From assembly GCA_026025795.1 (NCBI GenBank), contig JAPEUG010000004.1, positions 1 through 64,000 on the forward strand: a stretch of DNA of 64,000 nt. The letters are read 5' to 3'. This DNA is from Thelocarpon superellum. Its lineage: Eukaryota. The notes below the pieces were generated by a model. The model saw nothing but the letters and a program-made list of their open reading frames with translations, did not search any database and was not told where the DNA came from. Made by a program: the position numbers and the translations under genes. Of this stretch, positions 28,082-50,991 are shown piece by piece. The stretch's first letter is position 1; each line of letters begins with the position of its first letter.

Positions 28082-31000
28082 CTACTTCCGATGGCGCATC
28101 AATTCCGCCGGCTTGGAGGAATCCATCAATGCCATCATCGCCTTGCTGAGCGCCTTGAAATCCACCGGTTTCGTCACGTAGTCGCTGAAGCCCGCCTCCG
28201 TGCACTTGTCGATCACGTCGGCCATGACGTTGGCCGAGAGGGCGATGATCGGCAGATGCGGGAAGCGCTGCTTGCGCTCCCATCGCCGAATCTCCTTGCA
28301 TGTCTGGTAGCCGTCCTTATTGGGCATGTAAAGATCGCACTGTGCCGCTCAGGATTAGCCATCGACGGTCCGTCGCGAGGACACCGTGCGCGAGCCCACT
28401 CACCAACACGATCGAGTAGTAGTCGTGCGCGTGGCTGAGCACCTTCTCCGTCCCGATATTGCCGTCTAGCGCCGTGTCCACCTCCATACCGATCTTCTGG
28501 AGGAATCGTAGTAAGACCTGGACGTGCCGCTCGTTAGCCAGATGCTCAGATCCCCATCCCCATCGACCGCCGTCGTCAGCACCAACCTTTTGGTTCACCA
28601 GATTGTCCTCCACCAACAGGACCTTGTGGCCCTTGTGGCCCATGTCACGCTCCATGTCCACAAAGGTCTGCCGGCGCTGGTCGGCATGCCGTTCGCTCAA
28701 GGACGAATCGCGACCGGCGTCGGGATTGAAGACCTCAACGAAGCGCGAGGGCTTGATGGGCTTGTGGAGGAACTGGATGCGTCGGCGCTCCCGCTCCAGC
28801 ACCGACGCCCGGCTGGCCTCCGCCATGCGCCGCTTGATCTCGTTCCGCATCCGCGTGTCGGCAATGATGATGGTCGACGCACGCGGATACGGCAGGGACC
28901 CGAAGATCTGGTCGAGCAAGGCCAAGACCTGGTCGGTCTCGCTGAGGTTGAGGACGATGTGCGTGAAGATGACGGGATCCTCGCCGCCAATCATCCGCTG
29001 GCACTCCAAGACGTCGCGGCGCGCCGTGATCTGATGCGGAAGGTGCTTGGGCAGCGACATCTCTATGTGCTTGGTCGTCGCCAGGAGACTAAATGGCTGC
29101 GGACACACGACGAGGATGGAATACATGGGCGGCGGGAGGAAGATGGAGTCTTCCGACGATTCCTTGCGCAACGTCGACGGCGGTCCCGGTGTCACTTCGC
29201 CGTCGAGTTCCTCCCCAGGGAGGGAGAGCTTCATCGCCCGCACCTGCTGCCCGAGCTCATCCCGGGCCGCCGCGGGCACGTCCGGCCACACCGACGACAC
29301 GGACGACCGTTCCGACGGCATGGTCTGCGGGGAAGGAAAGGAACGGACGGACGGAACCGAGTGAACGGAAGGAACCGAGTGAACGGAAGGAACCGAGTGA
29401 ACGGAAGGGATCGATCGGATGGACGGGTCAGAACTGGCCGAGGACGCCAGCTCAGGGGACGGTGCGGCCGGGCCCGTCGCGATCGACGATCCAGGCGAGA
29501 GCGCAGGCGTGAGCACCTGGGTGCGCAAGGCCGCGGGCCGCGCCCCACCCGCGGCCCACCGAACTGGCATCCTCTCAGGCGATCGCGGCTCCGACGCCGA
29601 GGCCGGGCCTGAGTGGGGCTCGCTCATCTCCGCTGGCGGTTGATCCTCCTCGGTCGGCATGCGGAAGACGGCGGTGAAGCGAAAGGTCGAGCCCTGACCG
29701 GGCTTGCTGGTGCCCATCATCGTGCCGCCATGCATCTCGACGAGTTGGCGGGAGATGACCAGGCCCAGGCCGCTGCCGCCGTGCTGGCGTGTGCTGCTCC
29801 CGTCAATCTGGCTGAAGGGCTTGAAGATGCTCGCGGCCTCCTTTTCGCTGAAGCCCGGGCCTGAGTCGACCACCTCAAAGGCCAAGCAGATCTCGTCCGG
29901 GCCCTGCGTGGCCGCCCCGCGCTGGACCTGGCAGTGGGCAAAGACCTCGCCCTGCTTGGTGAACTTGACTGCGTTGCCGAGCACGTTCATGAGGATCTGG
30001 CGCACCCGCACGCGATCCCCCTTGATCGTCTCGGGCACGTCTTCCTCGACGACGTAGTTGAGCTCGAGGCGTTTGTTGATGGCCACGGAGGAGACGGCGT
30101 CGTTGACGGACTCAATCAGGGCGCGGATGTGGAACCAGTCGTACGTCAGACTCATCATGCCCGCCTCGATCTTGGAGAGGTCAAGGATGTCGTTGACGAT
30201 GGAGAGCAAGCCGTCGGAGCTGGACTTGATGGTGTTGCAGAAGTCGCTCTGCTCGGCGTTGAGTACCGTGTCGAACAGGAACTCCACCATACCGGAGATG
30301 CCGATGAGGGGCGTGCGGATCTCATGCGACATGTTGCTGAGAAAGCGCGTCTTGGAATCCATCGTCTCGCGCATCGTCTGCTCCAGCAGCTTGTGGTCGT
30401 TAATATCCGTGCACGTCCCAAACCAGGAGTCGCGATCGCCTGACGCCACGGCCTCGACCAAGATGCAGCGCACCAGGTGCCACCGGTACTCGCCCTCGCG
30501 CGACCGCAGCCGGACCTCCGTCGAGTAGGAGAGCTTCCCATCGGCGTCTTTGGCGGCCTTGAGGATCCCCGCGACCGGAATCTCGGCCAACTCGGGTCGC
30601 GGCGCCTCGAAGACGGTCGCGGTCGCGGTCGCGGTCGCGGTCGCGGTCGCCGACACCGAGCCCGATGAGCTGGACGAGCCGACGCGCGAGGAACGGGCGG
30701 CCCCGGCTACCACGGTCGCCCCTGTCGACGACGTTTCTTCGGACTGGCTCGCCCCCGAGACGTCCGAGGGCGCGCTCGTCCGGCCTAGCGATGCTGGCGA
30801 GGACATGACCGCGGGGCCGTCGGCGGGCACGCCGAGGAATGGTAGCTTGCACCGGGCGAGATCGTCGGGATGGATATGGTCCATGAAGCCCAGACCGAGG
30901 GCGTCCTCGAAGCGCTGGCCAGCGTAGGTCAGCCACTGGTTGTTGGCAAAGGTGACGCCCTCGGGCTCGGTGGCGGCGAAGACGATCTGCGGGCTGGAGT

Positions 31001-34000
31001 TGGCCAGCGAGCGGTATTTGGCCTCGGACGCGGCCGTCTCCTGCTGCCGGGCAGCATTGACCTCGGCCACGTGCTGCTCGTGGATGTCCATCGTCGTCCC
31101 GAACCAGTGCACGGTGCGCCCGCCGGTGTCGCGCAGGGGCGCAGCGCGCACGTAGAACCAGCGATAATGCCCGTCGAAGCGTTGGATGCGCACCTGATAG
31201 GAGAACTGCTCGCCGTTCCGCAACGACCGCTGCCACGCCTCGACGTAGTCGCCCCGTTGCTCCGGGTGGAGATTGCGCCAGGGATCGTCGAGGAAGGCCT
31301 TGGGGGTCTGACCGCGATAGGACAAGAAGCGCGAGTTGACCCAGGTGATGGCACCGTCCTTGGGCCGTGCCGTGAAGATATGGATGGGGACGGCGTCGAT
31401 GATGATGCGCAGGAGCCGCTCGGACGGCGGCGGCATGTCCACCGCCGGCGACACCGTCGTATTGTCTGAGCCACTGCGCCCGTGCGTGCGCGGGATCGAC
31501 GGCGGCGGCTGCGGCTGCGGCTGCTGCGGCAGCGCCGCGGCTGACCCGGTGCTAAGACCTGTCGTCGCGGCCGAGGGGAGGGATTGAAAGGTGGCGGTGA
31601 AGTCGGCTCCATAGGAGTGAAGGAGCGTATGCGTCCGCGGTGGACGTGCGCCCGCGAGGGCGGTCACGCTCGCCGAGGCGGCAAGCACGGGTGCCCCTCG
31701 CTCTCCGCGTGAGGGTGCTCCCCGTTTCGAAGGTGACCGTTCCTCTTGCGGCGACGACGGGAGGTCGTGTGACCGTGGCCGTCCCTCCAGCTCGAGCTCT
31801 GGCGTCGGCCGCTCGTCGGCCTCGGCCGCGCGAGACGGATCACGCAAGAAGGGCTGGACGGAGGTCCGACGCGGGGTGGCATGGGTGGCCGCCACGGTGG
31901 CTCGTGCACCGGGTCCACTGGCCGGGGAACCCGGGCGGTGACGCGCCTGGAAGTAGCCGTCGTTGCTGGAGGGGTCCCACCCCGGGGTCCCGACCAGCGG
32001 CCAGAGAGGGCTGTTCATCGACAGGCGTGAGTGCTCACTGGGGCTGGTGGAGGTGCCGCTGGTGAGCGGGGCCAGGCCGCCATCAGTGCTGCTGGGGGAG
32101 TAGGTCACGTCGAGCTCGGCCAGGTCCTCGAGGTCATGTCCATGGCCAGGGCCGGCCCCGGCGAGCAGGCCAGGCGGGCGGCGATGACGCGCCAAGCTTG
32201 CCGCTTCGGCCTCGAGCGTCGAGTATTGTCGCGCGAGCGAGAAAGAGGTCGCCAGATGCGGCGCCAAGTCCTCGAGGGCGTGCGTGAGGTTAGCCGGGTA
32301 GGGGACGACGGGCGACAGGATGGAGAGGATAGCGACGGGCGTCTTGCGCTCGGGAGCTCCGCCGGGGACGGAGCCCCGCCGGCCGTCGACGATGGTGCGC
32401 GACAAGAGGGGATGGATCAGCGGCACGTGGAGCAACGAGGCGGCACGGTCGAGACCGATGGCCTCGATGGGCTCATTGACCGTGTATGCGTCGGCGGCGC
32501 CAGGGGGATCGAAGGAGTCTTCGTCCACCGTGGCCGCGGCGAAGAAGGGATTCTCCGCCGATTCGTCGCACACTGCCGGCGACGGCGCTGGCGATTGCGA
32601 CCACGGCGCGGCGGCAAGCTGTTCGAACTCCTCGTACGGGGGGGAGCCGGCGCCCAGCGGCGGTGCGCGGGCGGGATCGAAAGGTGGCACGACAGCCTCT
32701 GAACCGCGGTACGAAGGCGGGGCCCGCCCCAGGTCCGACGGGCGCGTCAGCGGGTCCTTGTCCTTGCGGCAGAGCACGACGATGGCGCCGCGTTCCAGGA
32801 CCCGGGTGATGGTGGCGCTGTCGACGAGCGGGTGGGGCTCCTCGTCCAAGGCCTGCAGGACCGGGAGGACGTGGCCGCGGGACTCCCGGACGGCGGCCGG
32901 ATCAAGATCGGCGTATGCAGCGAGATCGTGGGTGGCTTGCCGCTGCAGCGCCTCGGCATTGAGCTCGGCGCGGGGCAGCGTGGCCTCGGTACGGGCCATC
33001 AAGTGGCTCTCCGTGCGATGCACGCCTGGTCGCTCGCCCGCCGGGTGAGCGGCGCGCAGCGGCGGAGTCTGGGGCTTGGCGTCGAAGCCGGAGAAGGAAT
33101 GTCGATCCTGTAGCTTCGGACGACGATCGTGCGGACGCGGCGTCGATAGATGCTCGACGGGTAGGGGGGAATTGGCGGCGTCAAGCGTCAGGCGCTCGGC
33201 CTGGTCGCTGCCCGGGGAGAGACTGCTCCGGTCGAGATAAGTCAGGCTGTTGCGGTCCTTTTCCTCCTCGCGCACATTGTACGTGGCCTTCTGGCCCCAC
33301 GGGACGTTGTCGAGGTCGGTGCCATCGGCGGGCACAGAGAGGGTCATGCGCACGGCGTGGAAGGCGTCATGGCCGATCCGGATCAAGCTCGTCCACCAAG
33401 GGTCGAGGCCGGGCTCGGCGTGAAGCTGCAGCGTGGTCTCATAGAGATTTGGACTGGGGAAGTGCGTGGACGGCTCGGGGCCCTCGGAAGGGCTTGCGGG
33501 CATGAAGGTGGTGGCGGAGGCGGAGGCCGGGGTGAAGGCGTCGGACACGACGCTCTCCCGTCGACCACGTCCGCCTGAGACGGGGCTCCGGGGCGCCGGG
33601 GCCACGGTGGGGGACAGGGCCGTGAAAGGTCGGTGATCGCCGGGGGGGCCATGTCGGGGAGTGAACATGGGCGGGAAGGGATACGCGGGCGTCCGCGGGG
33701 GTGGGTTGACCGGGCTCCGCACATCCGCGGCGCGCGTGGTGCTGTTGGAGTGCGATGACGCCGTGTTCGCCGGTGAGTCGGCAGCCGGGGAGACCCTGCT
33801 TCCTTCCGCGATGGGGGAGCCCCGCGGGCGGAAGGGTAGTGTTGGTCGTTTCCTGTCCATGGCGCTGGGCCTCGCGTCGAGAGACGCTCGTCCCGTCATC
33901 ATCTTCTCTTGCGATCTCCCCGTCTCCCCACCCGACCCGCGCTTCGACCCTGATCCTTCGTCTCGGCGGGCATCGTCGTGGCCGGTCGGTCCGGATGACG

Positions 34001-34331
34001 TCTTACGCTCTGCGGCTGCGGTAGTCGTCGGCCGAGTGTTTTCTGTTGTGGTTGCGGGCCTCGGCGTCGGAGGGACGACGGACGGGGCGGCCGCGAGCGG
34101 GACCGGCACGGCGGGCGGACGGTCGCGGTCGGTAGGGGGCGGGGACGCGTCCTCGGCGGAGGGTGAAAGATGACTTGGACTGGGCGGCGATGGGGCCGAG
34201 GGCGCAGCTTTCATGGCTAGCTGGGCCGTGCGGTCCGCTCCACCTCCGTCCAGGTCGTGGCCGTCTGCCTCGACCTTGACCTCGCCCTGGACAAGAGTCG
34301 ACTGCCGGGCAGGAGGTTGCGAGCGTAGCAA
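28082..34331 (-). CDS. Hybrid histidine kinase: long N-terminus, PAS/PAC x2, HisKA, HATPase, receiver (group V / HHK2 / PhkB-like); start uncertain
   Basis: PAS/PAC (DGHYRWFYVRA..WFGTTMDIHEQ; GEYRWHLVR..WFGTCTDINDHK), H-box FLSNMSHEIRTPL, N-box NVLGNAVKFT, G-boxes DSGPG and GGSGLGL, receiver LLVEDNLVNQ..CDLYMPNKDGY..YVTKP. Two introns near the 3' end. Confidence 0.93.
29340..29410 (-). repeat. 18-bp coding tandem repeat encoding SVPSVH-like units
   Basis: GAACGGAAGGAACCGAGT units; the protein reads SIPSVHSVPSVHSVPSVHSVPSVR. Confidence 0.85.
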
Positions 34332-37300
34332 TCGTGACCTCCGCTCGCGGAGACGTGGCCACGGCGTGATGGAAGCCCGGGAGGTAAGCGGGAGAGCGGT
34401 GGCGCCTCACGTGGCGGAAGAAAGGGCGGTGGGCAGGAGCAGTGGGAAGGGGGAAGGGAAAAGGGCGGTTAGGCCCGGGACATGGCTGGTACCAGGGACA
34501 TCACATCCGCCTACTTGATGTCCGATGGAACAGAAAGAGCGCGCGGATGATGGAGCAAAACGGAGAAGAGGAACGACCTGGCACGCGAGTAGAGCGGCGT
34601 ACACACACCAGAGAGACGGCGAGGGAAACCAACTTGCAGGCACAGAGAGGCCGGAGTCGGTGGTCACGGCTTGGGACATCATCGGTGCGAAGCGAAGGGT
34701 CTAGCGGGCAACCAACAGCCGCCAAGGCGCAAATGACGTCGACGGACATGGATGGGGGGTCTCCAGTTCATTCTGCCTTCTGCCTTTTGCCGGTCGGCCT
34801 GTCCGCCTTTGTGCACACCTCGCTCTCGCTTCGCTTTCGCTCTCACCCTGTCCTCCGCCGCTCCAGTCACCCCCGGATCGCGTCGGCCGCTGATGCACCG
34901 TTTCCGGGGACTGGGGCTGGGTAATGCTGTTGCAGAACCCACAACCTCAGCTCGACGAGCGGCCACACTGACCATTTTACCTTCGGGGCTTAACCCTCCG
35001 TGGTGGATGTTCGGGCGCCGCTTTCTGAGGTGCTGACACTTCGAACGTGGACCTGCGAAAAAAGAGGCATGGAGCAACGCAACCTGATTAGTGCCCGATT
35101 CTACCAGCAACAGGCCAGATGTCAAATGCACCACAGGTGATGCTGCTCGCTACACCGCAAACCTCTGCGAAGTACGACTCACCACATAAGCTAGTGCTAC
35201 TCTCGCAGTCTCGGTTCGTGGAGATGATCGAGAAGTAAGGGAAGTTCACCGACGAACTTCTCGTGACAAAGTGGATACATGTGAAGAGGCTTACCTAGAA
35301 TCTCACGGAGATTCTACCGCCTACCGCCTACCGCCGATGGACCGTGTAAAATGGTCGTGATGATGTTGGGGTGCACATACGCGACGTCGAGATGGTCGAC
35401 CGACAGCCAGTTCGTGCTCATCCGGCGTGTCCTTCAGAGCTCGCAGCAGCTGAGTGATCTGCTCCTGGACCTCGTCGTCATTGGCACACATTCATCTCCC
35501 AGCAGCGCACATTCATGCCCCAACAATGCAAAGCATATCGTAGTCCTTCCCGTGGGTTTTCCACTGCCGTGCCATGGTCAAGGCAACAAATTCCAGTGAG
35601 AATCATATGTCGCATGCCATAAGCACAAAAGACATGAAGAATAACTTGCATTGTGCATGCATACCTGGGCGAGAAACCCCTAAACTCGACCCACATCGAG
35701 AGTGAGTCGAAGCCAGCATGGAACAGCAGCTTCGATCTGTTTGGGCTCCGACGCACCCGGCCGGGCCAAGCCAAGTGATTTCTTCTCACTCTCTGACTCT
35801 GGATATCTCTTGTCCGTCTCCACCCGCCACGTTGACTTCCCGCCGCTCGATGGCAACTTTCCCCCGGCAAAGATGCTCGGCGTCTCATTCTGCGCCGTCG
35901 GCTAACTGGCAGGGACCGTGGCGATTCCCGGAGCCGAGTCGGCTCGTATGAAGTCTCCAAGCCACACCGACAGTAGTCTCGAGCGTGAGTTGTTCTCCGA
36001 ACCTGTATGTCTTCATCCCCTCCAAGAGCGAGCCACACCAGGTCCATCTGAATTTCTGCTGGGTGATCACTCTGGCACAACATGCACAAGGACGTGTCGG
36101 CGTCTACAGAGTCGCACTTGCGTTTGTCTCTATCAATGCTCTGTACTGCTGACACCAGCAAATAGATCTACACCTGTGCGAATCAGCCAGCACCCAGCTG
36201 GTGGGATCTCCAAGGCTTCAACATTCGCCAGCACGCATCGCAGGCGCGTATTAGATCATTGATGTTATGCTGTGATACTTTTAACATGATCATCACGGCA
36301 TTTAGCAAAGGTGAGATCATTGTCAAAGTTGTTGAAGATGGGGTAGCAAACGATGTGGTTCGGGGACAGCGGAGCCTGTGTATGTCATGTACGATTCAGG
36401 CGTGTAGAGCAACACAGTAGTGCGGAGTGCGACTCTGACACCGGCGCTAACCCTAGGGTAATGACGGTCGGGCGTGCGTGTGTGCGTGTGGCAGGCGATG
36501 GAAGAGTCCTCGCTGCACCGACGTCACTGTGGCACCTTGCGCACTCTGTATACCCCCCGTCTCCCAGGGTCACCCACCAGGGCCACTCACGACTTACTAG
36601 ACCACGACTAGTAGAGTCTGATCAGCACAGCACCGTCCTCTTGTCAGCTTCGTAGTCCTCTGTCCTTCGCACACCCGCTTCGCCCTTGTCCGACCAGGAC
36701 CGAGCTATTGCGCGTTTCTGATGCAAATCGCCCATTGGAATTCTTCTCCTTCCATGACGGTCGATTCCGTCCGATCGGATGGATACATCCGTGCTAGTGC
36801 AGCCGCGGTGGGCATCCCCTCGGCGACGGAGCAGCAGGGCCTACCACGGCTCTGAAGCGTCCGCGTCTAGCATTCAGACCAGGGCAGCAGCTGTCCGGGG
36901 TGGCGCGCCGTGCATGGGCGCAGCTACGGAGCTTCCGACCGGCTTTGACCGCATCGACCATCCTCATGGTTGGTCAATTAGTTACCGTAGCGTACGAGTG
37001 CTCGTACATATTATTTAATATTGAGATGATGGCCGTCCGCGAAATTGGACGTGGCCCCGCATCGCTTAGACTTTTTAGTTATCCTTCCGTCTCCGTCCCA
37101 CCACGCGGGTACTTCATCTCCAATCAGCGTCTTCTCAGCACGGTCGGTCGCGGTCAGTTGGTCACCGACCGTGACGTCAGCGAGCGAGCGAGGAGAGTGA
37201 CCCGCCTGCCCATCTCTTACCTCTGTACGACCGCATCGAAGACGCTGACGTGATGACCTGAAGTCGCACCCGGCCACACGTGATGCCACCGATTTGTCGG

Positions 37301-38463
37301 GAGAGGCCTTTTTCCGGGGGAGCACCAAAGTATGGGGCGTGGGCGACTGGTCTCTATAAGATTGATCGTCGGATGGCGCCGTAGCCGCTGCGCTCCTCGG
37401 CTGATCGGCAGACGGGTTTCGGCAACAAGTCCCGTGAGGATCGTAGTTGGGGGAAAAGAGGCGGGAGCGTACCAGATGGTAAGTAAGGGCATGGGCATGG
37501 CGGGTGACTTACTCCCTGCTCCGTTCTCGTACTTTGTTCATTGGGGTCTCATCCGCACTCATCTCGCCTCGAGCCGATCAACGTTGAGGGCTCGCCTCCC
37601 TGCATTAGAGCGAGGTAGAGGTTCCGTTACGAATACGAGTAGTACCCGAACGAGCACCGTATGGTACGGTTTGGAATGTACTGACGATGAGGAGCGAGAA
37701 GAGTAGAGTCATGAAGGAGAAATGTTCCTAGTACAAGAGCAAGGCGAAGCTTCGTCAGCGGCCACGGAGGAACTTCGAACTAACGATGCATGATCTCCGG
37801 ACCCTGAACGCCATGAGCGTGGCGCGGGCGTGGGCGCTACTGCCGCTGCTGGCGCTAGAGGGACAGGCACGTGCTAAACCAGACGAAGACGCGGAACAAA
37901 GCGCCAAATGGTGAACAGGAGAGGAAAGAAAGGGATGTGAGACAAAGACAAGACCAGGATCTATCAGGCAAGGAAACCACTGATGTAACTGGCTCGTAGT
38001 TGTTGGTACTTCGTACTCGAGTACTGACCGAATCTTCCGTCGGAAGCAAACCGTATTCATGCGGAAGGGTGAGCTGGGCCACTTTACTCAAACATCCAAG
38101 TCAAGGCATTGTTCAAAGTCAAGGTGAGTGGCACGAGAGCACTTGATGATGCCGCATGAGCCGAATTGACTCACATCCTCTAGCTTCCTCAAGATTGTTT
38201 GGAACATATTATGCTGCTGTAGGAGCGCGCACGTGATGTGGTCATGCGCACCTTTCAGTGACTATTCTAGCTACGAGGGGGGTTTGCATTCAGCTCTGAC
38301 TCCTGCACCACCAAATATTCCGCATCCTGTTGCCTTGTAAATCTGATCATGTTCCTCCCAAAAACCATACCTACTGTTTACGCTTCTCACCTCGAATCAT
38401 TTCTCGCTACTATCTTTCAGCTCTTCTGCAATTCACCAGCACAATACCGGAAGCGCGAGTAGA

Positions 38464-38991
38464 ATGGCTCGCTTCTTTGCTCTTTTCGCCATGTGTACCA
38501 TCTTTCCCCTTTCTTGCCTCGCCACACCCACAGGCTTAACAACAATCCCTCAGGAAATGTAAGTATCTCGAGAGTCATGGTGTGATAAGTTGCATCATCT
38601 TGAGCTGCTGTACAGTCAATGCCACAGTATCAAAACTGATGGCAGCTGTAAGCGTTGCGTGATTCCTGCGGGAATCTGTAAGGAAGCAGAAAGTGAAGCA
38701 GATTGTGGCCCACAGGGAACACTGTGCCGGAATATGAACACATTGGAAATCCCTTTTCACCTGTTGTATACCTACGATACTGTTCCAACAGTTTGCCGAC
38801 TATCTCGAGACCATACCGGACAGTCAATTCCAATAACGTTAAATCTTCGCGAGATCCTGCCGATAGATTTTATTACCAGCTACTAACGTAATAGCATCTG
38901 CACGATTCAAATTCCAAGTATAGGAACGTGCTGCGATGGCCATCCACCCGGGTGTTGTTGTTGTCATATCGCGATATTTCCATGGTGTTGA
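38464..38991 (+). CDS. Small secreted cysteine-rich protein (~137 aa, 3 predicted exons)
   Basis: Exon 38464-38558 encodes signal-like MARFFALFAMCTIFPLSCLA; intron 38559-38615 (GTAAGT..TACAG); exon 2 QCHSIKTDGSCKRCVIPAGICK..; probable intron 38838-38894 (TACTAAC..TAG, weak donor); exon 3 ICTIQIPSIGTCCDGHPPGCCCCHIAIFPWC*. Without exon 3 the frame stops at 38886. Confidence 0.65.
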
Positions 38992-39127
38992 GTCTTTCTG
39001 ACAGCCCTTGCAGCTCTACCGGTCGCCATCAGCTCCCACCACATCTCCAGCTTGCTTCATCCAACAGGTCTTCAATTCCTCTATACTAAGATTAATACTA
39101 ATGCGTGAATCGTCTACCAGGCCAGGG

Positions 39128-40617
39128 CTACAGACCACTATCGTTGTTGTCGCCCTCCTCATCCTCGTCCTCGTCCTCTTCCTTCCACGCCTCCTCTGTG
39201 AGGTCAATATACTGGGACTGTGGCACCAGCTGCGTCTCCTCCTCCTCCTCCTCCTCCTCCACCATCGCCTTCGCCCGCTTCTGTGCCCGGCACCGTGTCA
39301 TCGCCTCAGCCGCTCGCTTCCGCTTCCATCGTCTCTCCTCTCCCTCTTTCCCCGAGTCCTCCACCAGGACAGGCGGCGACAGTGTCGCTGTCACTGTCGC
39401 TGCTCCAGCACTTGCGACTACGATCGTGACTGCTGTGGCACCAGTCACGGTCGCAGTCGTTGTTGCTGGAGCAGCAGTCGACGACTGTGACCACGTTGCC
39501 GCCTGTCCTTGTCCCACAGCCTTCAGGACTGCAGCCTCCGGTCCTGGTGGCACCATCTTCCGCGGTCGCCATGGCCGCCTCTTCGCTGCTGCTGGTGCGG
39601 TCGCTGGCGGTAGCGCCGTCATCGTCGGCACGATCGCTGGGCTTGCTGGTGGTGCTGATGACAACGGTGGCGCTGGCGCCACCGACCGCGCTGGCAGCTT
39701 CGCCAGCCGCCGCTCCGCCTTCCTCTCCTGTGCCTCCGCAGCCTCGAGAGCTGTCATGGCTCGCTTCCTCGTGGAGCCATGACGCTTGAACTCTATCAGA
39801 CCCTCTAATCGACGGAGCGAACTGGCAGCTACAACGGCAGCTGCGCTCCAGGTCGTCTGACAGCCTGGACGCAGGACCAGGCGGCTACCCTTCAAGAGGC
39901 CACCAGCGCTCTCTGCTGCTCTGAGGAGAGTCCCTCCTGTTCCTTGATAAGCCGGAGCGAGACTGACACAAGATCGCCAGTCGGATCCTCCCACCCAGTT
40001 TCTGCTGTTCGCCGCTCGCTGTCGTCGTCGCCGCCACCGTCGCCACCACGGTCGCGTTCCTGCCCCACCGGTGAAATACCTGGGCTTGTGCCGCTGGCTG
40101 GGCAATAGGCCATGGCCCAGCCAGCTGGCACAACGTCTGGGTCATCCAGCAGCCAGCGGCGATGGACCAAGGAGACCGGATTGGCTGCCGCCTCCCCGCT
40201 ATTGGCAACAGCGATTGGCAGCAAGGTAGGCCATACCGGACTGGCAACTCACACGCTGACTGACACTCGATAGGAGCGCCTTCCTCCATCCTCCTTTCCT
40301 TGTCACCACCATCGCCACTCCCTTGGTCGCGGCGGAAGAGGAAGGTGGCTGGGCGGCTGGGTGGCTCTGGTTGCCTTCCTGCAGCAACCGTGACTGCTGC
40401 CTGGCCTCCCGCGCCTGCTCGTGTTGGACAAGGCTCTTTGCCTTGTCCCATTCTGGAATGAGGAGGTCCAGAGCGTGTAACGTGACCTGGTCAAGGAGGA
40501 GGCGGAAGGCCTCACGGTCAGGCAGCAGCCGCGGAGTGAAGAGACCGCTCTTGGCCTCCTCCTTGGCAAGGTGGTGGCTCGCCTCCTTGAGCTGTCGGTG
40601 ATGGTCCTGGAGCTTAG
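39128..40617 (-). mobile_element. Frameshifted C-terminal part of a Mutator-like (MULE) transposase
   Basis: Split over several frames: AFRLLLDQVTLHALDLLIPEW; SWIM-like CQSACELPVRYGLPCC; SLVHRRWLLD; GSTRKRAMTALEAAE; low-complexity acidic tail. Confidence 0.65.
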
Positions 40618-41359
40618 GCCGTATCGTAGCCCTTTGCCGGTCTTCCTTCTGGCGGATGATTCCAAAAGCTCCCCCACACGGCCTGACGTGTAACAGAAGG
40701 TTCGAAGTGCGGCAGTGAGCCGCACCCGTAATCCTCTTGTTTATATTCGTGCCAGTCATTCTGCCACAGCCGTCGCAGCGTACCGTCCAAGTCTCTGACC
40801 GTGGAGAAATGCTGCCGACGCGTGTCCCTCGTTAGCCCAAGCCTGAGTGCAAGCTCGCCGTCGATGTACTGAGACCGTCAGCTTTGCAGATCAACCGAGA
40901 CCCTTGAGGCATACCTTGAACACCGAGCTGTTCACCGAACTGGGGATAGATGCCCGGCCCTGCTCGGTCGCGCACCGTCGGTTCCAGGAAGAAACGAACT
41001 CTCGCCAGCCTCCGATGACAGCAGAGACTGTCGGTTTCACGCGAGTTCGTCCGTCCATGCCTAGCGCTATGAGCTCAGCAAATTGCTTCGCGGTCTGCAC
41101 GTCGTGCGGGGTGGCATCCGGGTTCTTGAGGGCATATCTGAATCCGGGATGAAACTGTCCGTCTCCGAACAAATCTGGCTCTACGACCGGCGAGGACCTA
41201 CGTTTCCCACAAGGCCCGACGTCGGTCCTGTTTCTCCTGTGTGGACTGCTCGATAGACGAATCGACGATGGCGGCGTCGATGTCGTCCTTCTTCGTCTCG
41301 TCGATTCCCCTCCACCGCGCCTGTTCCAAAACTTCTCCGGCAGACGCCTGCTTCACCAT
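40618..41359 (-). pseudogene. Truncated, frameshifted DUF3435 tyrosine recombinase (Starship captain-like)
   Basis: Exons 41359-41202, 41137-40915 and 40868-~40618 with canonical introns. Protein: MVKQASAGEVLEQAR..ALWET|YALKNPDATPHDVQTAKQFAELIALG..KPTVSAVIGGWREF..IPSSVNSSVFK|YIDGEL..RLWQNDWHEY, then a 1-nt frameshift near 40728, then RVRLTAALRTFCYTSGRVGELLESSARRKTGKGLRYG. Confidence 0.8.
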
Positions 41360-41875
41360 CTCTCGAGGCTCGCGAAGCGCGCAGGAACGGATCCAGGTAC
41401 CGGAGCGTCAGGACCACCGGAGCGACGCCGGAAAGGACGACGATGTTCGACTCCTCGCTGCAAGCTTCACCGAGCGGTCAAACGAACTCGGAATATGATG
41501 TGCGAGACCGGCGACGCACGACGTAAATGTACCCAGGCCGAGGAGCGAGAGAAGAGCGCGGTGGCTGTGGATGGAACGAGAGCGCAACGGCACACGGTGA
41601 GCGCGGACGGCCTGGGTCTCATGGACGTAGTCCCGTGTGGTGTCCGATCCCACCGCTTCAAGGGTCGCGGCACTTCGATGGCCAATGCCAGGCCGGAGCG
41701 TCCGAATTGGAGCCATGCTGGTCGGCAAGACTTGACCAGACGACGTCGCCGAAGGTGAGCAGGTAAGCGGGTGAGCGAGGCGGGTGAGGTGAGGGTCAGG
41801 CGGGGTAAGGAGAGCGGCGAGAGGGTGAGGCTTAACACGGTGGGGGAAGGTCGCGGGCGACGTGCAAAGTACTTC

Positions 41876-41913
41876 GTACAGGTACAGGTCCAGGTACAGG
41901 TCCAGGTACAGGT
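41876..41913 (+). repeat. Hexamer array (GTACAG/GTCCAG)n
   Basis: Directly visible upstream of the captain relic. Confidence 0.8.
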
Positions 41914-42246
41914 GCCATTGATATTCCTTCCTTTATGTACTTGTTGGCTTGGTCGATCTACACACCACCACTACAGTAGTCTCATGGTATTGTGGGTCGC
42001 GCAAGATGACGCCCCAACGCCCACGCTCTCGTGTCCAATACACGTAATGCTCGAGATGGCCAATGTGACAGTGTGACAGTGTGACAACGTGACAACGAGA
42101 GTTCGCCACCAGTCCCGTTCATCCCATCCCGGGCCGCCGTGGAATCGTAAGAGAAAGAAATGCTCAACGCCATCAAAATGCCCTCGCTGTTCCGTCGATA
42201 TATCTACATGTACCGCCCAAGGAGTCTCACGCCCATCTCCTGGTCC

Positions 42247-44473
42247 TCAGGGAGCGAGAGAGCCATTGGGTACGGTGGTTGTTCGGGACGGAGAGCGTCT
42301 GCGCTCCGTCTTCGGTCGCGCCAGGCTTGGTCGCGGGTGATGGGGGAGCGGAGCGGCGGGGCCGTGGGTGGTGGGGGTCTCCTTGCGGCCGACGCCGTCC
42401 GCCGCGGCCGCGTGGCCATGATCCGTCGCCTTCGTCGACCCCGCCCCGTTGCGCGTGGGCAGCGCCGCGTCGGCCGTGGGCAGCGCCACCGGCTGCAGAT
42501 ACTGCTCGAGCATCGTCTGCAGCACGTTGGCCCGCACCGGCTTGGCCAGGTAATTGTTCATGCCCGCCTCGATGCACTTCTCGCGGTCGCCCTGAATCGC
42601 CGAGGCTACGTCCCTAGTTAGCCGTCGTCGCAGAGGAGATCAGAATCAGAGGCAGAATCACGTACCGGTCATGGCGATGACGAGCACCTCGCGCACCGCC
42701 GGCCGCGCGTCCAGGCGGATGGCGCGCGTCGCGTCGTAGCCGTCCAGCTCCGGCATCTGAACGTCCATCAGCACGACATGGTAGGGCCGGCCGTGGTCTG
42801 CCGCCGTGCGCAGCGCCTCGACCGCCTGCTGCCCATTCTCATAGGCGTCGACGGCGTAGCCGAGGCGCTGTACAAATGAGATGGCGATGCGCTGGTTGAT
42901 GGGATTGTCCTCGGCGATGCAGATGCGCAGCTCCGCCCGCGCCACGCGCGACAGGTCCACGAAGCGGCCAGGCGGCGCGCGCAGCGTCGGGCTGGCGCCG
43001 TTTGGCGAGGCCATGGGCACCTTGGCCATCACCTGCGGCCCCACCGCCGCCGCGTCCCGGGGTGCCTTGGTTAGAGTCAAGGTGAAGGAGACGGTGGTGC
43101 CGCGGCCCTGCGCGCTGGTGATCCAGATGTCGCCGCCCATGGCGCCGATCAGGCTCTTGCAGATGCTCAGGCCGAGCCCGCTGCCACCGTAGCGCCGTGC
43201 CGTCGAGCTGTCGGCCTGGCTGAAGGGCATGAACAGCCGCTGGAGCTGCTCGTCGCTGATGCCGATGCCCGTGTCGACCACGTCGCAGCGCAGCCGGATG
43301 GTCTGCCCCGTCTCCTGCTCCACCGACGCGCCCACCGTCACCGTGCCGGCCGGCGTGAACTTGTAGCTGTTGCTGAGCAGGTTCATCAGGATCTGGTGGA
43401 TGCGCACCGGGTCGCCCAGCACCAGCGTCGACGGCAGCGCCAGCCGCTCCACCGTGCGCAGCGTCTTGTCGTGGTGCGTGCGCGCCAGCGCCCGCACCAC
43501 TTCCTCGATGGCCTCGCGCAGGTTGAAGGGGATGGTGACCAGCTGCATCTTGCCCGCCTCGAGCTTGGAGTAGTCGAGGATGTCGTTGATGACGGTGAGC
43601 AGGGTGTCGGCGCAGACGCGGATCGAGTCGGCGTACTCGCCCTGCGTGCGCGTCATCGTCGTCGCCTTGAGCAGCTCCGACATGCCAATGACCCCGTTCA
43701 GCGGCGTACGCAGCTCGTGCGACACGTTGGCCAGGAAGATGCTCTTGGCCTTGGCCGCCTCCTCCTTGAGCCGCAGGTTCTGCACCGCCTCAGCCTCGGC
43801 CTGCTTCGCCTTGGCCTCGGCCGCGCGCGCCTGCGCCAGCGCCCGCCGCTGTGACTCCACCATCGACGCGTTCGCGGCCGACACCTTGCGCAGGCGCTTG
43901 AACAGCAGCGCGTTGGAGATGCTGATGCCCATCTGGTTCACCAGCAGCTGCAGCACCGTCAGGTTCCGGTCCGTGAACGTGTGCGGCGGGCCCTCGAGGT
44001 AGAGCGCGCCCAGCAGCGCGTCGCCGCCATGCAGGATGGGCAGCGCAATCACCGACTTGCCCAGCGGGTTGCGTTGCAGGTACTTCTCCGACACGTGGTT
44101 GAAGCGCTCGTCCGTCAGAAGATTCTGCAGGAACACTGGCTCGCGCGCCCGCAGGCAGTACAGCGCGATCTGCTTCGACACCTGGTCCTCCACCTCCGCC
44201 TGCGCCAGCGGCAGGCCCGGGTTGAAGGCCTCCACCCCGCCGTCCGGGTCGCCGCTGGCCGCCACCGCCCACCCCACTCCCTCCTCTTCCACCAGGATGG
44301 CGGCAAAGTCGGCCGAGTTGCCATCGAGGATGAGTTCGCACATCTTCGGCAGCAGCACGCGCTCGTCGAGCTCCGACGAGATGATTTGGCTCGAGGTCAA
44401 GATGCTCTGCAGGTCAATCACGTCGATGCCGTGCCCCGACACCCCCGCCGTCGCGCCCTCGAGCTTCTCCACC

Positions 44474-44504
<31 letters not shown>

Positions 44505-47500
44505 TCGGGGCCAGCCAATCGCGCGTACGGTCCTGGCTGCTCTCGTCGCCGCTCTCGTGCCGCAGCCGGCGCTCGTTCTCGTCCACCTCGAGCCGAGCGT
44601 ACTGGCCCTGCGCGTTATCCGCCGGCGCGTCGGTCTGGCAGGCCACGTCAGCGGCGTCGGAGGGCAGGTACTCCGTCACCAGCCAGTGGTACTTGTGCAC
44701 CACCTGATCGGCCTTGCCGAACGCGCTGATGCGCCGGTAGCTCGAGATGGCGTCCTTGAGGAAGGCGCGCGCCGCCCGCTTGGCCGTGCGCCGCAGGAAG
44801 AAGCCGGCCATGAGCTCGTGGATCAGGCCCTCCTCGAGCACGAAGTCGTGCGCCTGCGCGTGATCCAGCGCCGCCTCGTACGCGGCGATGGCCTGTCCGT
44901 ACTGCGTCATGACGTCGCACATTTCCGCCGTCAGCAGGCGTGACCACATGCCGTAGTTGGCGTCCTCGACCGCCTCCCACGCCGCGATCTCCCGCTGATA
45001 GCGTCGGACCTGCTCCATCTCCGCTGAATCCTGTCGCGCCGTGCCGTCGCGCCGCATCACCGCCAACAGCGCCAGCGCGGTGTAGAAGCGTAGCAGGCGG
45101 GTGGCGCGCATGGTCCACAGGTCGTCAACGGACGCCATCGTCTGCGCGCTCAGCCGCAGCGCCTCGTCGTACTGCTCGTAGAGGTAGAGGGGGATCATCG
45201 CGAGGCTGTTGTAGAGGTCCAGCGCCCGCGACGGGCTCGACGAGTGGCTGCGGATGTGCTGCAGGTACGCCGCCGAGTCGTGATGCTCGTCCGAGAGCAT
45301 GGCCGCGCCGGCGCGCACCCGCGTCTTGCCCTGCAGCGCCCGCGCCACCTGCCGCACCGACAGGAGCAGGGCGCCGCCGCGGAGGTCGGCACCGAACTCG
45401 CGCACCTCATCCGGCGCCTGGCTGCAGAAGGACTCGATCTCCTGCAGGTCGTGCGAGACGGAGAGGCGCGTCAGGGCGATGGCGCTCATGTTCAAGACGC
45501 TGAGGATCCGGTCGCCCGCGATCACTGGGCTATGCATGCCGCCCTCCAGCGCGGGCAGGCCGGCGCGCAGATGATGCTGCAGGTGGCCCAGCATGAGCCA
45601 GTACGTCGTGTGCCCGCGCCCGAGCGCGTACGTGTCGCGGAGCCGCTCGTTGAGCGCGCGCGACAGGTCGCTGAGCTCGAGGCCGAACGCCACCTGGCCG
45701 TGCCGGCTGACGGCGATGGTGCCCAGGTAGAGGTAGCCGAGGCCGACCTGGGTGAAGGCGCCCGTGTCGAGGTGCAGCTCGACCATCTTGAGCACGGTCT
45801 GGTAGAAGAGCAGGCTATTGCTCCAGAATGCCGCGCTGACCGTCTCCACGAGGATGGCACCCATGGCCACCAGGTCGGGCGCGTCCCGAAGGGGCCACTG
45901 CAGCAGCTCCTCGCGCGTGATCGCCTTGATCCGGTCGCAGAGGCGCCCAAAGTCGGCGTCGCATCGCTCCCACGTCACCTGCTCGGCCAGCTGCAGGCCG
46001 AGCTGCGACAGGGACTGCTTGAGGGCCTGGAAAGCGCCCAAAGGATTGCCCGACTGCGCCAGGATGCGGCTTTGCAACACCCACGACGGCGCCCGGTCGA
46101 CGGGGGAGCGGGCCCGGGTGAGCGCCGTCTGGAGCAGGTCGAGGGCCTCGGTGACGCGCCCCGTCAGCCACAGGCACTCGCTGGCGCGCGTGAAGAGCTG
46201 CAGCGACTCGTCGTAGTACACATCCGGCCCCACGCTCCACGGGTCGGGCTGCAGGAGGGCAAGACAGTTCTGGTAATAGTACAGGGCCGAGGCGCGGGCG
46301 CCGCTCTCGCCCGCCTTCTGGCCGGCCTGGAAGAGCAGCTCGCGGAAGCGGCTACGATGGGCGACGCGGCGCTTGATGAGCTCCACCGACTGACACACGT
46401 GGCTGCTGCGCACGTAGATGTCGCGATCGTCGAGCCCGTGGTATTTCATCATCGTCTGGGCGATCAGGAAGTGCATCTTGGTGATGTTCTGGCACTCGCG
46501 CAGCGACACCGACGCCTGCATGTACCGGTCGTGCGCGAAGCGGAACTGGTCGTCCTCCTCGCCGGGGATGAGGATGTAGGCTTGCAAGGCCGCCTGCAGC
46601 CCGGCGACGGCGTCGGCGCTCCGACTTGACAGCAGCTCGGCCCGCTCGGTGCAGCCGGCGTGCACGTCGTCGTCGGCCTCGCGGTAATCGAACTCGCCCG
46701 TCATGAGCTTCTGCACCAGGCTAAAGGAGAAGGCGACGCCCAAGAGCGACGCCCAGGCCAGGATCGAGCGCGACGCCGGCGGGAGCTCCGTCAGGCGACG
46801 GATGACCATGTTCTTGCTGAAGCTGTCGCCATGGCAATCGGTCTCAAACTCCCGGAAGATACGGTCGAGATCGTAGTGCCAACAGGAGGACTTCCAGTCA
46901 TACCTAGTCCCTCGTCAATACGTCAGCGGGCTCGCCTCGACCCATGGGAATCCGTTGGGGGAGGAGAAGAAAGGGGGGGGGGGAGAGCGAAGAGGAACAG
47001 GGAAGGAGGAAGGGAGAAAAGGAGGGGGAGACGGACCAGAGACAGTTCTTGCGATAGGCCGTGCTGAGCATCTCTCGAATCTCAAAGGGGTTGCCATCCG
47101 TCTTCTCGCGGATGGCGCCGGCGAGCGGGACGACGTACTCGCGCGGGCGATAGAGGGCAGTGGCGACGTAGGCGACAATCTCCTCTTGGCCCAAGGGCGT
47201 CAGCTCGATGCGAGTGATGTTGGCGTGGTCAGACTCGAGCACGGAGCGCACGGTGTGACCCAGCATCTCCTCTTGGCGGTAGGTGGCGATGACGACCAGC
47301 TTGATCCGGGCCGCAACGATGTTGGTCAGCAGCTCGAGGCTCTCCTCATCGGCGAACTGCAGGTCCTCCAAGCAGAGACAGATGAACTTGTGCTGGCTCA
47401 GGAGGCGCAAGACGTCGAGGAAGGTGTTCATGAAGCGGAGCGACTTGGTGGAGGAGCCATCGCGCAGGAAGTCCGCCGTGGACGAGATGTTGGTGGTACG

Positions 47501-49849
47501 GAGGTTGTGGGAGCTGCTCTGGGAGCTGGTCTTGGACGGCACGCCGTCGATCGCGAGGGAGGTGTAGGAGGGGGTGGGCGCGAGATGGGCCGGGGTCATC
47601 GTCGTCGCGGGCAGGGTGGCGGTGGTGCCGAGGAGGTGTTCGGGGATGTCCAACATGACGTGCAGCAAGGGCCAGACGGGCTTGACGGACGATCGGATCA
47701 AGTGATGGAAGTCGGTGGCGATGTCGCTCTCGGAGAAGATCTGGCGGAAGAGCGAGGCCATGAGGCGCAAGACGGGCTCGAAAGGCTGCTTCTTGGCTTG
47801 ATCGAACTTGGTCGAGGCGGTGTAGCCGCAGCGACGGGCGGCCGTCTGCACGCTCTGCACGAGGCACGACTTGCCTAGGCCGGCGGCGCCGGCGATGCTG
47901 ATGACCTCGCAGCGGCCCTTGCGATGCAAGCGGTGCAGGCTCCGCCGCCGCGTGGGTGCCGTCGACCCGTGCGCCGGACTGTCGGAGGAGGCGGCGCGGT
48001 CCTGCGGCGAGCGGTGATCGACGGCGGCTTTTCCGGGCGCATTGGGCCGGTGGTCGGCCGACGCGACGCTCTCCGCGCTTCCGCCCACCCCGGACGAGCG
48101 ACTGGTGAGGTGTGACTGCTGACTGTCGGACGAGTTCTGGTGCACGCCGGCGGCGGCGCCCAGCATCGCGGGCGTGGCGGGCCCGGCGGAATTGGTGCGG
48201 GTGACCTCGTGGGAGCTGGCGCCGTCGCTGGAGCCATCCGCCAGCTCGGCCGCGTCCGCCACGCCTTCCGACACGGAGGAGGAGGCCGTGGAGCCAAAGC
48301 TGTACAGGTGGGCCTTGCGCGGCGTCGTTGAGGGGCCGCCACCGGAGCGCCGCGACACCCTCTCGAGGAGGCGCACGATCTGGTCGTGCTCGGCCTGCCG
48401 GCCAAACATCTGCGTCGGCAGATTCAAGTAGCTGGACACGTCGCGGGTGGCGATCTTGAAGGTCTTGAGGGCCTCGCCATCGCCATCGCCCAGGAACTTT
48501 TGCAGCGCCTGCAGATCATGCTTCAGCCCGGTGGCGGAGTGGTAGCGCTCATCGATCTGCTTCATCGTCATCTTCTGAATGATGGCCGACAGGACGTCGG
48601 GGACATCGAGGCGCTTGGACGTGACGGGCGGGATGCGTCGGCTCAAGATGCCTTGGACCACATCCATGGGCGTCGAGCCATCAAAAGGGAGCTCGGCGGT
48701 GAGCAGACTCCAGCAGAGGACGCCGAGACTGTAGATGTCCGTCCGGCTATCCGGCGCGGCGATCATGCGGCCCGTCTGCTCGGGCGCGACGAACTGCAAC
48801 TTGGTCTTGACCCCAACCTCGCGCGAGAGCGTCGACCAGCGCGCGCTCGTCAAGATGCCGTTCTCGAAGGAGCGCGGTCCGGCGCCGAAGTTGATCAGCT
48901 TGACGAGGCCGGTGTCGACGTTGAAGTGGAAAGCGTCTCCACGCAGTTCGGCATGCACGGTGCGTTGGCCGTGGTGGAGCAGCTCCAAACACTCGCTCGC
49001 ACCAATGGCGAAATCCAAGAAGGGGAGCAAGGCCATGGGCCGGCCGGACGCCTCGTCGCCGCCCACGGTGGACTTGGGCCGCGCCCCCACTGGGGGAGCC
49101 GGGCTGGCCGGGGTGCCGCGATACCAGGCCGGCCCGAAGTTGACCAGGTCCATCAGGTAGTTGCGCCCGGGGGACTCGACGATGGATACGACGATGGGCC
49201 CGCGATCGCCCTGGTGTGGCGCCAGGCGGACGAGCTCGAAGGGGCGCACGACATGTTTGCCCTCCGGATCGGCCGTCTCGAGGAGTGACAGGCAGAGGTA
49301 GTGCTCGCGCTCGAGACGCAAGGCATGGGACGAGATGCGTGCGACGACCCAGGGCGACGGGGTGGTCGGATCGGATCGGGCCGCCCAGGGAGATGAGGGT
49401 ACCGTCTGGTCCGAACGACCCGACCCGTCGCTCCCACCGTCACTGGCGGCACGCGCAGGCGATGGACGAATGGTGGAGCGGGGTGAACTCCGGCTCGAGC
49501 TGGTCTTGCTGTCCGAGGCAGCGGATGGCGATGACGACGCGGACGTAGACACAGACGGCGTCGACGCGGTCCGACGGCCAAAAATGTGCCAATTGCCATA
49601 GCTCTGCGACGCCACGTTAGCACCTGCTCCCTGGTCAAGAGGAAGGCGAGGAAGGGCCATATGCAAGGGTTCGACGAGGACCTCACGCACCGAGTGAAAG
49701 GGTGGGATCGAATCATCCCACATGTATCCCGGGATCTGGCCCAGGCGTTCCAAGAGGCGTGGGAACGAGTCGTCCAGATCTTCGACCCTGGTGTTTGCGA
49801 CAGGATCGAGGCCGTGGCCGTGGCCGTTGCCATTGTTCCGGCCGTCCAT
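42247..49849 (-). CDS. Hybrid histidine kinase: kinase-like + AAA + GAF + HisKA + HATPase + receiver (group X; Chk1/Mak2/PhkA/HHK1-like); multi-exon
   Basis: HAELRGDAF, FVAPEQTGRM, RTDIYSLG; P-loop GAAGLGKS; LEDLQFAD; FRFAHDRY; GAF region; FLANVSHELRTPL, NLLSNSYKFT, GGSGLGL; receiver IAEDNPINQ, LMDVQMPELDGY, YLAKP. Confidence 0.95.
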
Positions 49850-50991
49850 GATAGCTCTGTCACGCACGCTCACAGTTCCCACCACCACAAGGTGCACCCT
49901 CTATACCGGAGGCTGTGGCGGTTAATGGCATGCGATCATCTTCTTGCTCGCGTAGAAACGCTCTTGTGGGCCGCTCGCAATGGCGAAGAGCCCGACGATC
50001 AGCAGATTAGGAGATCATTTGATGATATGCATGAGCTTGATCTGCCTGGATCTGCCTGGATTTGCCCCGGCTGCGTTAATCCACGCATCATTGACGATCA
50101 CGTGGGCGGCGGGACTCGCTACGCCATTGCCCCGCCGCACGCCGCCAACGACGTAGACGTGTAGGAGTACGTGCCACAGCCTCCAAGGTCCACTTCGCTA
50201 CTGTTATGTGGAACGCGCTTCCGTAGAGTCATCCGGCGGCAACACCCGTACATGCTCCCTTACCTACTCGGGGCCGTTGTAGCCGTCAACCTCGCCAGGA
50301 GCATTATAAGCGTCACGAACAAGCAAGCATAGCGTGCTGTAGTTTCAGTTGATGCCCTTTTACACGAGACAGGCTCAATGCGCGCTCGGCGGAGTGCCAC
50401 TTACAGCACGGGAGCTGGATCCAAAAGGCACCAGTTGTTAGGAACCTCCCTCAGCCCGCTCGTGGACGCGCCCGCTTACCGACCAAGTGCGGGTCTACTG
50501 GTCTCAACTTTTGGTCGCCTGGTGTTTTGCGCTCATTTGGTCCATTCAAATGAAAAGACCAAGCAACCAAAAGCCGAGGCCAAACGTCCCGTAACCAACA
50601 TCGCGCTTCTTGGGTCGTTTCAAGGTAAAAAGACCAAGTTACGAAAGCGAGACCACATCGCCTGTAACTGGGATTCTCTACACCGGATCGACGACGGCGA
50701 CGATGGGTCGGGACACGGGCATGGGTAGAGTCGGGGGAGGGAAGAGGAAATAGGAAGAGGAAGACAGCGACGTGGTGTCTACGATTGGTGGCGTGACGTA
50801 GACGGTAGGTGGCAGATGGCCACCGATGTCTTGTGCCGACTCGTCTCGTCTCGTCTCGTCTCGTCTCGCCCTTTGCATGCACGCTATGTAAATCTAGATA
50901 GGGCCGGTGTCCTCCGCGGCTTCCGGCACCAGTCAACAAGGATGGGATATGGACATGTAGCAAGGATGGTATCAACAAAACGCGTATGGAT

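Follow-up and report, generated by a model that had tools for sequence, protein, structure and literature searches.

A probable dead remnant of a captain-type DUF3435 tyrosine-recombinase gene between two histidine-kinase genes of Thelocarpon superellum

Starships are defined by target-site duplications together with a DUF3435 gene at the 5' end, and a region is termed Starship-like when a DUF3435 gene occurs together with accessory genes (PMC9156397). Captains, the DUF3435 tyrosine recombinases of these elements, need an R-K-H-R-Y pentad; for the captain HhpA, mutants with a frameshift or an altered Tyr are described as losing activity (PMC10104507). From the 10,771 Starship YRs predicted in PMC11162782, 2,402 were discarded because they represented fragments or pseudogenes, and its authors state that many predicted YRs may be pseudogenes. 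As incomplete captain genes have already proved to be common, the remnant described here does not change the general picture.

The window analyzed in this study is a stretch of 64 kb from the fungus Thelocarpon superellum (contig JAPEUG010000004.1, positions 1 to 64,000). We consider it likely, with a probability of roughly 0.85, that positions 41359-40618 on its minus strand represent the 5' third of a dead DUF3435 tyrosine-recombinase gene of the Starship-captain type, the rest of which has been lost from intron 3 onward. The remnant is located in the 8-kb spacer which separates two histidine-kinase genes, both also on the minus strand. The upstream neighbor (42247..49900) codes for a hybrid histidine kinase with Pkinase, AAA_16, GAF, HisKA, HATPase_c, and Response_reg domains, the end of the receiver domain being situated in its last ORF (42250-42639). 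The downstream neighbor (28317..34406) codes for a histidine kinase with PAS, HisKA, and HATPase_c domains. Short tandem arrays of the (GTACAGGTCCAG)n and (GTGACA) types are found at 41866-41913 and 42060-42095, between the ATG of the remnant and the stop codon of the upstream kinase, and one contig from a moss metagenome (X3, see below) shows a six-base length difference at position 42049 in this part of the spacer.

The comparison was based on a family HMM of 579 positions, built from ten full-length fungal DUF3435 (PF11917) proteins. Four minus-strand ORF pieces match it in collinear order (hmm 1-52, E 1.3e-4; hmm 54-125, E 1.9e-15; hmm 124-169, E 4.5e-9; hmm 170-223, E 4.5e-11), and the runner-up among the 1,848 six-frame pieces from the window reaches only E 0.72. 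The four matching pieces overlap, extend from stop to stop between 41407 and 40306, and turn into one frame after splicing. According to the computed splice model, the remnant (41359-40618, minus strand) consists of three exons. Exon 1 (41202..41359) starts with the ATG at 41359, from which Met the match of the ORF piece 41201-41407 begins, and its final two bases belong to a split codon. Intron 1 (41138..41201) is 64 nt long (GTAGGT...CAG); it contains an in-frame TAG, which is spliced out, and a clear branch-site consensus is absent from its 64 nt. Removal of this intron generates ALWETYALKNP, which aligns without gaps to elWdeyekrnP of the family. Exon 2 (40915..41137), corresponding to the second piece, codes for part of the core-binding-type N-terminal region and is followed by intron 2 (40869..40914; 46 nt, GTATGC..GCTGAC..CAG). 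Exon 3 (40618..40868) is represented by the last two ORF pieces, holds a frameshift, and ends with ...SGRVGELLESSARRKTGKGLRY(G).

When the spliced peptide, with an X at the frameshift, was aligned to hmm 1-223, the match proved to be end-to-end with 191 bits and showed no gap at either splice junction. Of the 14 residues in this range which are invariant in the family, the remnant retains 13, and it has 28-41% sequence identity to the ten family members. In tblastn, ten near-full-length proteins of the PF11917 family match the window only at 41220-40510 on the minus strand (E 0.002 to 1e-18), all remaining matches having an E-value of at least 0.19. A preliminary description of the locus had proposed a spliced, frameshifted, and truncated DUF3435 tyrosine-recombinase pseudogene, with three exons joined by GT-AG introns of 64 and 46 nt into one frame which the ORF track shows only as scattered pieces. 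The splice model, the ordered match of the four pieces, the tblastn results, and the end-to-end alignment of the spliced and frameshift-corrected peptide to the family HMM bear this out. A check named in that description, a direct match to the Pfam DUF3435 model, gave a negative result: run on single ORF pieces, none of six reached the gathering score of PF11917 or matched it even at E 10. This is explained by the last ~55 residues of the remnant covering only about the first 50 of the 418 model positions, as mapped in the relatives.

The link to PF11917 was thus built via full-length relatives which bear this domain. A phmmer search with exon 2 (P0001, 90 aa) against 1.8 billion representatives resulted in 16 matches at E <= 1e-3. 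Eleven of these are short fungal-type fragments of 72-161 aa (best E 6.4e-11), which share the motif RY.K.P.A.PHD..TAKHF.EF...W..F...W.RR; the other five (636-2182 aa) were judged spurious, being proteins with bacterial-type repeat domains in which several short stretches had matched. A word-indexed search of longer proteins with exon 2 alone yielded none among 88 candidates. With a profile of 12 sequences, a single match was obtained among 7,556 candidates of the longer proteins, namely P0018 (443 aa, E 2.2e-20), which bears PF11917 (33.6 bits, with a cut-off of 25.8). A search with P0018 retrieved 36 relatives from Lecanoromycetes, Geoglossomycetes, Eurotiomycetes, Leotiomycetes, and Dothideomycetes (names as given by the sources), and PF11917 is present in 8 of the 12 relatives which were scanned.

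Several of the database entries are affected by gene prediction at intron 2. Many of the eleven short proteins turn to junk exactly where intron 2 starts in the window, and these short "proteins", found among P0002-P0017, comprise little beyond exon 2 running into the intron. Intron 2 is also mis-handled in the public gene models of P0018 and P0019, where it is read through as coding sequence.

The family alignment shows two invariant residues, R206 and Y399 (P0019 numbering), and three near-invariant ones, H363, R366, and H389. The set R206, H363-x-x-R366, H389, and Y399 fits the R-K-H-R-Y pentad of captains as described in PMC10104507. The Arg of SGRVGE, which had been taken as the first catalytic Arg, indeed aligns with the invariant R206, and it is the only one of the conserved catalytic residues kept by the remnant; H363, R366, H389, and Y399 belong to exons 5-6 and are downstream in the relatives. 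Through exons 1-3, the remnant is predicted to retain a core-binding-type region at the N-terminus, followed by the beginning of the catalytic domain including the first active-site Arg. Since exons 4-6 with the His-x-x-Arg, the His, and the nucleophilic Tyr are missing, its product would be unable to cut and rejoin DNA. Judged by its sequence, the remnant is a member of the DUF3435 family by descent and not a working enzyme. For relative P0019, the AlphaFold model is poor (mean pLDDT 55), and no PDB entry was matched by Foldseek at E <= 0.001. Its top-ranking rows are tyrosine recombinases throughout (Cre, Tn1549 integrase, XerH; E 0.012-0.1), which is a weak hint at a tyrosine-recombinase fold. 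A profile search of solved structures returned nothing at E 1.

The frameshift was located at 40737..40742 (minus strand), where one base was lost or two were gained in ...TAT AAA CAA G.... The frame slips by one base right after ...LWQNDWHEYK and resumes as (T)RGLRVRLTAALRTFCYTSGRVGELLESSARRKTGKGLRY, which ends at 40621. With one X inserted at this position, the spacing from WHEY to SGRVGE is the same as in the family. Public sequencing data were compared over 33-46 kb: run X1, DNA which covers the whole window, and the runs X2 and X3, moss metagenomes from another study which hold about one quarter of the words of the window. The X1 contig spanning 40475-41196 has no gaps relative to the window. 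An X2/X3 contig covering ~40682-40878, a range deduced from SNP rows at 40723-40831 and the distances to the contig ends, differs by four substitutions. No insertion or deletion at the frameshift is listed in the contigs of X1, X2, and X3. Because contigs from X1 and X2/X3 cross the site without an indel, an assembly error in the window does not account for the frameshift, and the single-base frameshift which had been noted after WQNDWHEY holds.

A near-identical wild strain, represented in the moss metagenomes X2/X3, carries the same relic. Within the remnant, it differs by six substitutions, three synonymous and three non-synonymous, a number so small that neither neutrality nor constraint can be inferred. 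At position 40953, in exon 2, the X1 contig has a T where the window has a C, which is a non-synonymous difference. The 209 codons of the remnant are devoid of stops apart from the one frameshift. Together with the retained invariant residues, this indicates slight decay, compatible with recent inactivation or with some retained use. AT-rich decay of the RIP type is not seen, the GC content being 0.57-0.60 in the remnant, with a nearby minimum of 0.46 at 38.4-39.1 kb.

The exon structure of the relatives was deduced from 34 loci with genomic DNA, which were retrieved from metagenomes by means of the family alignment; the HMM was mapped onto their plus-strand ORF pieces. A scan with exon 2 alone had given 584 pattern matches, none of which was confirmed. 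The piece map indicates six exons for the gene of the relatives. A piece boundary at hmm ~53 occurs in all 26 covering loci and matches intron 1 of the window, a boundary at hmm ~124/125 (24 of 28 loci) matches intron 2, and a boundary at hmm ~209 (27 of 32 loci) matches the position where homology stops in the window; the loci counted are partly non-independent, since one element family contributed several copies. Further boundaries are seen at hmm ~242 and ~356. In the 12 loci of relatives whose junctions were compared with the window, exon 3 ends with a Tyr and one additional codon, followed by GTGAGT or GTAAGC. At the corresponding place, the window reads TAC GGC CTAAGC, and this CTAAGC (40612..40617, minus strand) possibly marks the onset of intron 3, the donor of which would have mutated.

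The end of homology at GKGLRY (hmm 208/209), which was seen as had been described, coincides with the end of exon 3 in the relatives and is not an arbitrary breakpoint. For hmm 224-579, neither tblastn nor the family HMM over six-frame pieces gave a match anywhere in the 64-kb window, and exons 4-6 are thus absent on both sides of the remnant, over at least 40 kb in the downstream and 23 kb in the upstream direction. Concerning the earlier statement that the rest of the catalytic domain was deleted, the absence has been found, and deletion as its cause is an interpretation. Most likely, the remainder of the gene was lost through a deletion or rearrangement which started within intron 3 or immediately behind it. 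The same event would have taken away whatever element had been driven by the recombinase, an element presumably once present here, and would have left the relic on its own between the histidine-kinase genes.

The intact relatives allow some insight into such elements. They are the first genes of their elements in metagenome contigs, facing inward at a distance of ~0.45-0.55 kb from a conserved element end. In 12 of 13 loci compared, a sharply conserved terminus (…TATATAG..TCCCCGAACCCAGGCCAACACGTGACC…) is found ~544 nt upstream of the ATG, and outside this terminus there are nine unrelated upstream flanks, which are often rich in (TA)n. Some copies of this element family (L002-L018 and L028; e.g., L002:9457-15027) contain insertions of 1.7-3.3 kb. 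Two copies (L007:9460-22062 and L008:9419-22019) are 99% identical over 12.6 kb, from the terminus to the end of the DNA compared, and differ upstream of it. The part which they have in common includes an ORF with a FAD_binding_8 domain (20932-21645 in L007), so that at least one element of a relative has at least 12.6 kb and carries an ORF of the ferric-reductase type. FAD_binding_8 is one of several ferric-reductase domains in the list of conserved Starship genes (Table 2 of PMC9156397). A second subgroup (L027, L029, L030) has a conserved terminus of its own (GTTTTTTAAYCCGAATATGTACGT) ~440 nt before the ATG (near L027:9079, L029:9073, and L030:2800), with three different AT-rich flanks. In L027, a Peptidase_C12 ORF and an ankyrin-repeat ORF are encoded 7-8 kb downstream. 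The position of the relatives as first genes at a conserved mobile-element end agrees with the general statement in the preliminary description that the captain is the first gene of its element, and makes "captain-type" a fair term for the remnant.

That description had gone further and considered the locus an immobilized Starship. This over-reaches, as neither element ends nor a target-site duplication, cargo, or accessory genes were seen in the window. In a related reading, a large degraded Starship would still have its 5' end marked by the remnant, with the leftward genes at ~14-41 kb as cargo (the PAS histidine kinase, unannotated ORFs, a GMC oxidoreductase, and a protein with a fungal-rhodopsin domain). 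The captain points leftward into this region, as in the Starships of PMC9156397; the relatives are first genes of elements of at least 12.6 kb; and 34.4-40.6 kb is devoid of recognizable genes. The accessory genes typical of Starships include GMC oxidoreductase and rhodopsin-domain genes, both of which are present in the proposed cargo. Nevertheless, we regard a degraded Starship as unlikely. Genes for DUF3723, ferric reductase, patatin, NLR, or Myb were not found among the large ORFs and 126 of the 200 ORFs of at least 120 aa, the other 74 being omitted as they overlap large genes already scanned. Terminal inverted or direct repeats are only of chance size (14-38 nt, 61-93% identity), and none could be placed as element ends. 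An element boundary was not recognizable by repeat and terminal-motif searches within 41360-42246; the terminal motifs of the relatives, sought upstream of the ATG, gave one CCCGAA, which is inside the kinase gene and uninformative. A 5S rDNA or tRNA target was not found in the Rfam searches, which returned nothing at gathering score for the full 64 kb and, at E <= 1 for 34.3-42.4 kb, only sub-threshold matches to microRNA models (the hairpin repeats at 39.36-39.70 kb and one match at 40073-40147). When eight element interiors of relatives were compared to the window by tblastx, the captain exons alone matched. Core genes such as those for MAD1 and an AAA ATPase are found further left, and the strain from the moss metagenomes has the same arrangement where covered, so that no presence/absence polymorphism was seen. 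Beyond those already mentioned, the genes identified in the window code for muniscin, a protein kinase, CIR, Mo25, RasGEF, allantoicase, and a myosin-tail (DIL) protein, and the identifiable neighbors of the remnant are ordinary non-Starship genes. By the published definitions, the locus is neither a Starship nor Starship-like, being a solo captain fragment, and it should not be counted as a Starship.

Two other alternatives concern the sequence directly after the break. A stretch at 40253..40620 (minus strand), in a third frame, has a coding-like GC distribution over codon positions 1/2/3 (0.68/0.46/0.72) and is followed by a candidate intron (GTGAGT...TAG). A truncated gene might still be in use, with the front half of a Starship recombinase kept either as a gene of its own (a DNA-binding, core-binding-type half of ~212 codons) or as promoter and first exons of a chimeric gene which includes this stretch; if true, this would be a domesticated captain fragment between two signaling kinases. 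Such use would fit the 13 of 14 invariant residues retained, the frame, which is open from the ATG through exons 1-3 to the TAA at 40614-40616, and the coding-like signal with the candidate intron behind it. Against this, the frame of the stretch differs from both frames of the remnant, the stretch has neither a Pfam match nor a usable protein match in the Atlas, and the few SNPs give no signal of purifying selection. The stretch is not demonstrably part of the recombinase as far as homology goes, and we consider retained use very unlikely. Even less credible is an internal deletion in place of a 3' truncation, by which the stretch would be the diverged C-terminal tail of the recombinase. By eye, LFTPRLLPDREAFRLLLD from the downstream ORF resembles the C-terminal F.RVR.L.P.RDRLASSLFL of the family. 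Two sub-HMMs do not bear this resemblance out: a C-terminal one gave -3.9 bits on the stretch (E 1600, rank 1481 among the six-frame pieces), and an exon-6 HMM from sequences of 16 relatives gave E 460; Pfam was empty for the stretch as well. We thus retain the reading as a dead captain-type gene truncated from intron 3 onward.

Further downstream, from the remnant to the PAS histidine kinase (34400-40600), ~6 kb are devoid of Pfam-recognizable ORFs, which is an unusually long spacer for such a gene-dense window. It includes a stretch of lower GC content (0.46-0.49 at 37.9-39.1 kb). At 39363-39550, nested imperfect inverted repeats with arms of 37, 30, and 23 nt are found in a GC-rich stretch of low complexity; the microRNA-model matches which they draw remain below threshold (36 bits compared to a gathering score of 110).

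A single pseudogene, and not several small genes, should be annotated for the scattered ORFs at 40.6-41.4 kb. The remnant is a clean example of the death of a captain gene, with everything past exon 3 lost and one frameshift, and it points to a captain-type recombinase having once been hosted by the fungal lineage of Thelocarpon superellum.

Among known systems, the remnant is most readily compared to the Starship captains, e.g., HhpA of Hephaestus and Kirc of Enterprise (PMC9156397, PMC10104507, PMC11162782). It resembles them in its homology to fungal proteins bearing PF11917 and in its N-terminal region with the first catalytic Arg, and its relatives share the inward-facing position as first gene close to an element end and, in one case, the combination of a large element with a ferric-reductase-type ORF. 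In contrast to captains, it is restricted to hmm 1-~209 of 579, has one frameshift, and lacks the HxxR, His, and Tyr; unlike in Starships, no element ends or cargo are recognizable in the window. The relatives, with ~560-760 aa, are also shorter than the median of 812 aa reported for Starship YRs. Pseudogenized captains have been described, such as that of Wallaby, which has many premature stops (PMC11162782). Both are disabled DUF3435 genes in a fungal genome, whereas the remnant shows a clean loss past exon 3 and a single frameshift, with neither scattered stops nor a surrounding element. The "derelict" degraded Starship regions of Macrophomina (PMC9156397) are likewise relics of past Starship activity, and the situation is reversed: as described there, they retain cargo (FRE, DUF3723, OCH1) without DUF3435, while the locus described here has a piece of DUF3435 and no cargo. 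Finally, the Crypton DNA transposons of fungi are also DNA elements which code for a tyrosine recombinase. Their recombinases are placed outside the DUF3435 clade according to PMC9156397 and PMC11162782, and the relatives of the remnant would be set apart from them by PF11917 and by their larger elements.
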